A stretch of 64,000 nucleotides of DNA from Anaerolineae bacterium. Its GTDB lineage: Bacteria > Chloroflexota > Anaerolineae > Epilineales > JAANWY01. Where the stretch lies: contig JBHHTZ010000001.1 of assembly GCA_046753605.1 (NCBI GenBank), positions 1,244 to 65,243 of the forward strand, given 5' to 3'. Below the pieces are notes generated by a model. The model saw only the letters and a program-made list of their open reading frames with translations. It was not told the DNA's origin and did not search any database. A program made the position numbers and the translations under genes. Shown here one piece after another: positions 28,351-28,619 of this stretch; positions within the stretch are counted from its first letter, which is position 1; each line of letters begins with the position of its first letter.

Positions 28351-28619
28351 GGGGGCAGGAGGGGCAGGCAGGGGGCAGGTCACTTGCCCCCAAAAACCGT
28401 CGCAGTTTCATTGAGTTACCACTTGGGGGCAGGAGGGGCAGGTAATTTCAAAACCTTCTTTAATTTTTCCTCTGCCTACATTCACTTACCCACTAATTTT
28501 GATTTCTAAGGGGTTTTTAGAAATTACCTGCCCCTCCTGCCCCCTCGGGGATAACCCCCCGAAACGGCAAACGAAATTGGGGGCAGGTCACTTGCCCCCA
28601 ACCTGCCCCTCCTGCCCCC
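28351..28619. repeat. Symmetric GC-rich inverted-repeat element with a 70-nt AT-rich core
   Basis: GGGGGCAGGAGGGGCAGG units forward at 28351 and 28425, reverse at 28520..28544 and 28602..28619; 25-nt perfect inverted repeat 28425..28449 / 28520..28544; identical hairpin GGGGGCAGGTCACTTGCCCCC at 28371 and 28579. Confidence 0.8.

Follow-up and report, generated by a model that had tools for sequence, protein, structure and literature searches.

SV40 large T antigen and papillomavirus E1 assemble as a head-to-head SF3 double hexamer on inverted short sites that lie by an AT-rich tract. In the iteron plasmids (RepA/pi/TrfA) and the lambda ori, 17–22-bp direct repeats, or repeats located within the O gene, are combined with WH1–WH2 or O-type initiators, DnaA boxes and the host DnaB loader. 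Phage P4 replicates from ori together with crr, a second and separate element, its iterons being of the TGTTCACC type. SaPI origins are described as carrying 6–12 iterons that flank an AT-rich centre, two or more of them on either side and in opposite directions; the SaPI Rep, a self-loading SF3-type helicase, reads these iterons through a C-terminal winged helix, two hexamers being thought to load beside the AT region (PMC9371898). The SaPI/P4 type of origin is already known, and the probable origin described here is an unusually well-defined example of it.

We analysed a 64,000-nt stretch of DNA (hereafter, the window), which represents most of the genome, about 74 kb in length, of an uncultivated temperate phage. 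Judged from its sequence features and from comparison with related phages, an array of approximately 270 bp in the window is very probably the bidirectional replication origin of this phage, read by the phage's own D5/P4-family primase-helicase. The array shares with the SaPI origins, such as those of SaPI1, SaPIbov1 and SaPI5, whose initiator-helicases are Rep or PriRep, its short iterons, AT-rich centre and opposed halves, and the window also encodes an SF3-type helicase with a C-terminal winged helix; in most relatives of the phage, the array directly follows the rep gene, as in SaPIs. There are also differences from the SaPIs. The array of the window is 7 kb from the initiator gene, its units are GC-rich and 8–9 bp long instead of penta- or hexanucleotides, and the number and spacing of sites (4+2/2+4) are fixed to within 1 bp in the window clade. 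Furthermore, the replicon is a phage of ~74 kb with its own family-A DNA polymerase, whereas a SaPI is a 15-kb satellite, and the sequence identity between the window protein and the SaPI Reps is marginal. At the sequence level, the window appears to carry every feature of a SaPI/P4-type system except an origin adjoining the rep gene.

Compared with P4, in which ori and crr are separate, the sites of the window form a single compact array with mirror symmetry. The inverted 6+6 layout suggests the same logic as in SV40 and E1, but the origin-binding domains of those initiators have a non-winged-helix fold and are N-terminal to the helicase, the SV40 origin has far fewer sites (four GAGGC pentamers), and no sequence relationship with the window protein is detectable beyond the SF3 core. 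Repeated initiator sites beside an AT-rich unwinding element are likewise found in the iteron plasmids and the lambda ori. Assignment to these two classes was rejected, given units of 8–9 bp at 9–11-bp spacing, inverted halves, no DnaA boxes and no Rep_3 or O-type protein among the 40 open reading frames (ORFs) scanned.

The array consists of 12 sites between positions 28351 and 28619, of which ten are exact copies of GGGGCAGG, the shortest unit common to the repeats, and two carry one mismatch. It forms a mirror image with six sites per half, each half being composed of an outer tetrad and an inner doublet (Table 1). The start-to-start spacings are 9-11-11-43-9 in the left half, 92 across the centre and 9-44-11-11-9 in the right half. 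The inner doublets face one another and the outer tetrads are mirror images. In the left tetrad, the third unit and the inverted unit together form the palindrome GGGGGCAGGTCACTTGCCCCC; the two one-mismatch inverted units complete both 21-nt palindromes of the array. A sequence-only reading of this DNA had placed GGGGGCAGGAGGGGCAGG at 28351 and 28425 with reverse complements in the right half, a 25-nt perfect inverted repeat, and identical hairpins at 28371 and 28579. All of these were recovered: the reverse complements of GGGGGCAGGAGGGGCAGG at 28527–28544 and 28602–28619, the inverted repeat at 28425–28449 and 28520–28544, which includes the left inner doublet, and the hairpins as a 21–23-nt palindrome, GGGGGCAGGTCACTTGCCCCC(AA), at both positions. 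The mirror symmetry around an AT-rich spacer, claimed in the same reading, was borne out and is here refined to 12 sites and an 84-bp core.

Table 1. Coordinates of the repeat array, its AT-rich core and the genes discussed (window positions)
Feature	Coordinates	Strand	Description
Left outer tetrad	28351–28391		Three GGGGCAGG units, starts 28352, 28361 and 28372, centre-facing, plus inverted one-mismatch unit at 28383 (CTTGCCCC)
Left inner doublet	28425–28442	+	Starts 28426 and 28435, centre-facing; 43 bp from tetrad
AT-rich core	28443–28526		Candidate DNA unwinding element; 84 bp, 28.6% GC in a genome of ~60% GC
Right inner doublet	28527–28544	−	Starts 28527 and 28536, reverse orientation; mirrors 28425–28442
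Right outer tetrad	28579–28619		Palindrome (28580 forward; 28591 inverted, one mismatch, CTTGCCCC), then reverse units 28602 and 28611
Candidate initiator	18876–21350	+	D5_N/DUF5906 (P4-family, SF3) primase-helicase, 824 aa
C-terminal winged-helix domain	20931–21350	+	Proposed iteron reader; residues 686–824 of the candidate initiator
Left neighbour gene	27652–28281	−	Signal-peptide-like N-terminus; secreted protein
Right neighbour gene	29008–29313	+	Weakly holin-like; opens the right-hand operon
Tyrosine integrase	33085–34071	−	328 aa

Ten of the 12 exact copies of GGGGCAGG in the 64-kb window fall within the 269-bp array, between 28352 and 28618. Dinucleotide-preserving shuffles of the whole 64 kb averaged 4.58 copies, and 12 was not reached in any of 100; by a Poisson estimate, at least ten copies would fall in 269 bp with a probability of ~1e-24. 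In an unbiased k-mer scan, no repeat cluster of the window was denser than the array. The literature search revealed no prior description of the unit sequence in a phage or plasmid context. The core enclosed by the inner doublets is the lowest-GC 84-mer in the window (fraction 2e-5), and it includes the least stable 80-bp duplex of the 64 kb, with a dG of −95.0 against a mean of −122.2 (sd 7.5).

The cumulative G−C curve of the 64-kb window reaches its lowest point at 28666, 47 bp past the right edge of the array, and the minimum stays at this position in the 71.8-kb sequence reconstructed with neighbouring contigs. A GC-skew analysis had been proposed with the sequence-only reading as a check of the origin, and in this 71.8-kb reconstruction, a part of the full genome, it placed the switch at the array. 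The cumulative maximum, at a distance of ~35.8 kb from the array, falls slightly outside the window, at about coordinate 64,470 (contigs L135/L136), where gene orientation also turns convergent. This second skew switch may mark the replication terminus. On a circular genome of ~73–74 kb, as the assembled contigs would imply, the two switch points would lie almost opposite each other.

We compared the contributions of the side of the array and of gene orientation to the skew, for which 15 genes served as the orientation control. To the left of the array, all ten plus-strand genes show negative skew (−0.07 to −0.36 at third positions), and to the right, all five minus-strand genes show positive third-position skew. 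In a weighted regression, the skew coefficient was 0.06 for side (0.10 at third positions) and 0.018 for gene orientation (−0.04 at third positions). The sign of the skew tracks the side of the array and not gene orientation. Part of the skew is nevertheless shared with transcription, because most genes are co-oriented with the inferred direction of the fork. Among the relatives, L012 and L141 show positive skew to the right of the array although the genes there are on the minus strand, and at the relatives' loci the skew minima are 0.4–2.8 kb away from the arrays. This compositional pattern is that expected for bidirectional replication starting at the array, and its V shape, independent of gene orientation, points to this mode of replication in a phage of ~74 kb.

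The array is located in a 726-bp gap between two diverging operons, one running on the minus strand from 28281 and the other on the plus strand from 29008. Such a position would also fit a multi-operator transcriptional control region that serves both operons and has no role in replication, and the palindromic site pairs are typical of dimeric regulators; in addition, a temperate phage with an integrase should have a genetic switch somewhere. We consider this unlikely on the following grounds. No repressor or HTH gene flanks the array, the neighbouring genes encoding secreted and holin-like proteins, and a scan for sigma-70-type promoters detected none within the array and only one weak minus-strand promoter-like site in the gap, at 28813. 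The arrays of the relatives are not consistently placed between diverging genes (that of L139 lies between two plus-strand genes and that of L141 between minus-strand genes), and many of them come directly after the stop codon of the primase-helicase gene. Control of transcription alone also leaves unexplained both the skew switch and the fact that unrelated elements, too, have such arrays beside SF3 helicase genes. An additional regulatory role of a replication origin at this site is possible, since both diverging operons must have their promoters within this 726-bp stretch.

With respect to the remainder of the gap, the segment 28620–29007 is not conserved among the relatives. Between the array and the holin-like gene, at 28862–28900, there is an AT-rich hairpin (AAAAATGCA...TGCATTTTT) that resembles a bidirectional terminator but whose folding energy does not surpass that of shuffled sequences (z about −1.6 to −1.8). 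The hairpins at 28868–28895 and 28959–28977 were likewise no more stable than shuffled sequences, and a 'terminator' called in the gap proved to be the right-hand palindrome of the array itself. The label 'hydrolase', given to the left neighbour gene in the sequence-only reading, found no support, the gene having no match in Pfam or PHROG.

The candidate initiator is encoded in the left arm, and 7,002 bp separate its stop codon from the first iteron. The protein matched Pfam D5_N (2e-30) and DUF5906 (1.4e-11) and the PHROG category DNA primase (1e-94), and its NCBI name is 'phage/plasmid primase, P4 family'. Residues 454–777 matched PDB entry 7ola (depositor name 'DNA primase'; E 2.5e-6), which we take to be the SaPI5 primase-helicase. 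The protein combines an SF3 helicase with a winged helix at its C-terminus, and a fold search matched the latter to the P4 origin-binding domain; a phmmer search against PDB with the C-terminal 184 residues alone gave no meaningful match, and Pfam recognized no DnaG-type primase domain in the N-terminal 300 residues. The domain order is the same as that of the phage P4 alpha protein (PMC2777425). Entry 7ola is mentioned in the SaPI paper (PMC9371898). Pfam detected no other initiator, repressor, partition protein or Rep-type domain in the scan of 40 window ORFs, a set comprising every recognized left-arm gene and the genes on either side of the array. Consensus searches of the window and its close relatives, allowing up to one mismatch for the DnaA box, detected no DnaA or IHF boxes, as is expected for a self-loading helicase.

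For comparison, we assembled a series of approximately 15 clade members besides L012 from a protein database and a metagenome scan, with primase-helicases 47–79% identical. At each relative locus, the densest strand-merged k-mer cluster was an intergenic inverted array, the exception being L142/L280. The array of L141 (53% identity) has the spacings 9-11-11-44-9, 124 across the centre and 9-44-11-11-10, so that its arms match those of the window within 1 bp, and every unit is GGTGCAG. L144 (54% identity) has the layout of the window within 1 bp, with AGTGCAG as the unit. The tetrad spacing 9-11-11 is found in both, and L140 has 10-10-12. Across the series, spacer sequences and the length of the centre differ from locus to locus (86–124 start to start) while the spacing of the arms is kept. 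The units thus change while the geometry is kept within 1 bp, which argues that the units are binding sites under selection and that their spatial arrangement matters.

The distance between array and primase-helicase gene was also compared. In most relatives, the array lies 4–80 bp 3′ of the primase-helicase stop codon, and it is immediately downstream of the gene (4–76 bp) in L012, L269, L270, L273, L282, L287, L143 and L284. The syntenic replication module of L012, with a 50% identical primase-helicase, has an array of the 11-bp unit CGCGGCACTTG beginning 15 bp past the stop codon. Other relatives carry the units CGGCACC, GGCACTTG, TGGGGAA, AAACGCC and ACCTTCC in arrays 15–76 bp past that codon. 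In the five users of GGGGCAG (63–79% identity), the distance between array and gene is 2.3–7.0 kb, that of the window being the 7,002 bp given above and those of the other members 2.3–6.1 kb. In L142/L280 (91.6-kb contig Ga0214473_10000171; primase-helicase 47% identical), no array was detectable in the 10 kb flanking the gene on each side, and the origin may be located elsewhere or be too degenerate for detection. As a separate observation, L141 contains at 6102–6148, in the gap between the gene ends at 6089 and 6392, about eight tandem copies of the 6-bp sequence AGCACA, which are unrelated to the iterons.

The C-terminal winged helix was compared with the units used. The wing residues HG[QE]RFF are present in all five GGGGCAG users and are different in users of other units; this association is confounded by relatedness, because the five are also the closest relatives. 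The wing motif alone cannot explain specificity, since distant users of GGGGCAG carry a different wing: the primase-helicase of L003, 27% identical to that of the window, has the wing NGTRGF and yet the unit GGGGCAG. Similarity of the primase-helicases, overall or at the C-terminus, was likewise rejected as an explanation of the iteron common to the window and L003, as the C-terminus of the window protein is closer to that of L012, which has a different unit.

A lambda-type attP is of similar size (~270 bp) and has oppositely oriented arm repeats and an AT-rich centre. The array resembles it in all three respects, and a tyrosine integrase is encoded in the window, so that the units might be arm-type integrase sites with the crossover core in the AT-rich centre. 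The integrase gene is, however, 4.5 kb away with several genes between, and the distance from array to integrase varies in the relatives (~4.8 kb in L140 and 6.6 kb in L141), the array instead tracking the primase-helicase gene. In many other elements, similar arrays follow primase-helicase genes and not integrases, the unit sequence changes with the relatedness of the primase-helicases, and an attachment site would leave the skew switch unexplained. These observations make an attP at this position extremely unlikely. The integrase itself belongs to a minus-strand three-gene cassette (30335–34071), together with a 716-aa protein that matched nothing in Pfam or PHROG and one of 201 aa faintly resembling a transposase. 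The pairing of an integrase with a protein of ~700 aa recurs in L140 (310 and 694 aa) and in L141 (301 and at least 667 aa).

To return to the replication origin, we examined whether its motif occurs in independent elements. A loose GGGGCAG pattern gave at least 120 loci in viral contigs, of which 120 were analysed; most are noise or coding repeats, and the array of L124, lying inside a 502-aa ORF, was rejected as an origin-type array. Arrays of at least six units in both orientations were present at 14 of the 120 loci listed. A D5-type gene was detectable by tblastn in the locus for five of these 14 and for four of the other 106 (Fisher p = 0.001), and in all five the 3′ end of the primase-helicase gene is 9–188 bp from the array. 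Pfam placed four more of the 14 (L048, L031, L113 and L126) directly after DUF5906, Prim-Pol/VapE or DUF927/HTH_56 helicase genes. A near-miss array (L120, with 1+4 units) follows a D5_N/DUF5906 gene.

The GGGGCAG arrays at L048 8424–8737, L031 5766–6063 and L015 1832–2152, directly 3′ of Prim-Pol/VapE and DUF927/HTH_56 SF3 helicases, are on contigs of 46–53% GC. The presence of such arrays at other SF3 sub-families may reflect convergence, an ancient shared specificity or an artefact of the motif search. The exact 18-mer of the array matched nine times in viral contigs, and a genuine array was present in L003 alone. The window and L003 have no protein in common except the primase-helicase, and L003 even carries the same GGGGGCAGGAGGGGCAGGTAATT box. 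At 5122–5130, beside its GGGGCAG iterons, L003 carries a perfect DnaA-box consensus, TTATCCACA, in an integrated element of 70% GC; there is none in the window or its close relatives.

It had been stated in the sequence-only reading that the origin would be refuted if the repeats proved to be a common REP-type element of the host chromosome. Ten of the 12 copies are at one phage locus, and among the 119 bacterial matches listed for the 18-mer, each a single match per stretch, 118 are isolated, without an array, and apparently due to chance. In the phage and the sampled bacterial stretches, a dispersed REP-like repeat is not supported.

The same reading had placed a replication origin first, with a cos/pac-associated structure, a recombination site and a multi-operator locus as alternatives. 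The origin is now supported by the skew switch, the arrays 3′ of primase-helicase genes in relatives, the kept geometry and the P4-type winged helix, and no positive support was found for the alternatives. Taken together, these results suggest the following mechanism. The D5/P4-family primase-helicase would recognize the GGGGCAGG units via its C-terminal winged-helix domain. In each half, the outer tetrad offers sites at a spacing of one helical turn and the inner doublet lies four turns further in, and because the halves are inverted, two helicase assemblies would be placed head to head, flanking the 84-bp AT-rich core. The core would then melt, the helicases would load themselves without a separate loader, and forks would leave in both directions. 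We infer that the protein binds these sites, that one hexamer is formed per half-origin and that replication starts at the array. As a more speculative proposal, which we regard as possible but less than probable, the 4+2/2+4 geometry may be the physical template for a head-to-head double hexamer, with six winged helices on the six sites of a half-origin, and the clade may represent a series of co-evolving pairs of winged helix and iteron. If so, comparison of the pairs with GGGGCAG, GGTGCAG, AGTGCAG, CGGCACC, TGGGGAA and other units would directly reveal the recognition code of a bacterial-virus self-loading helicase and how it assembles.

To our knowledge, the replication origins of uncultivated phages have almost never been located. 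For this phage of ~74 kb, sequence alone would yield the origin, the probable terminus and the initiator. The points of note are the exactly conserved 6+6 geometry, the displacement from the initiator gene and the relatives with altered units. Approximately 15 related origins, each with its own primase-helicase, provide material for the study of DNA reading by winged helices and of hexamer positioning. For metagenomic phages and satellites, they also suggest an annotation rule, namely, to search the few kilobases 3′ of a D5/P4-family helicase gene for the inverted k-mer cluster of highest density.

Finally, we considered the phage genome as a whole. Of the genome, ~72 kb (71.8 kb) was reconstructed; the longest public copy, of 73.8 kb, is binned with an Anaerolineae metagenome-assembled genome, and the window sequence was also found on a 69.5-kb Logan contig. 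On this basis, the phage is tentatively associated with Anaerolineae (Chloroflexota). A blastn search of 27000–31000 against 50,697 phage records (INPHARED) gave no DNA-level match, and scans of the window for tRNA genes and Rfam families detected neither. The left arm carries a replication module with a RecD-like helicase, a family-A DNA polymerase, an SNF2/DEAD-type helicase, a PD-(D/E)XK exonuclease, a thymidylate synthase and the primase-helicase, and on the right arm are the holin-like gene, the integrase cassette and genes for large proteins of structural or lysis type. The two ends of the 71.8-kb reconstruction showed no overlap.

The packaging genes were not located by PHROG searches, which were uninformative in this respect, and the annotation leaves an adjacent terminase possible. 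As cosB and pac sites and parC-type centromeres consist of repeated protein-binding sites round a central region, which the array also has, it could serve in packaging (cos/pac), mark a genome terminus or act as a plasmid-type partition centromere. This is very unlikely for several reasons. Assemblies from several runs pass straight through the locus, with contig ends elsewhere, two of them 1,087 bp before the window; the flanking genes are of lysis type or encode secreted proteins, and are not terminase genes; and no ParA, ParB or ParM was found among the window ORFs scanned. Moreover, neither packaging nor partition would lead one to expect the skew minimum or the proximity of such arrays to SF3 helicase genes. 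The two contig ends belong to independent assemblies (SRR29324589_48215 and SRR29324590_217892), which begin at the identical base, 1,087 bp upstream of window position 1 (position 1 of L134); this shared start could be a physical genome end or an assembly-breaking repeat. Lysis-type genes are scattered in the window: an Amidase_2/PG_binding_1 gene at 21360–22184 comes directly after the primase-helicase gene, and a 1,203-aa protein with peptidoglycan-binding domains is encoded at 48367–51978.
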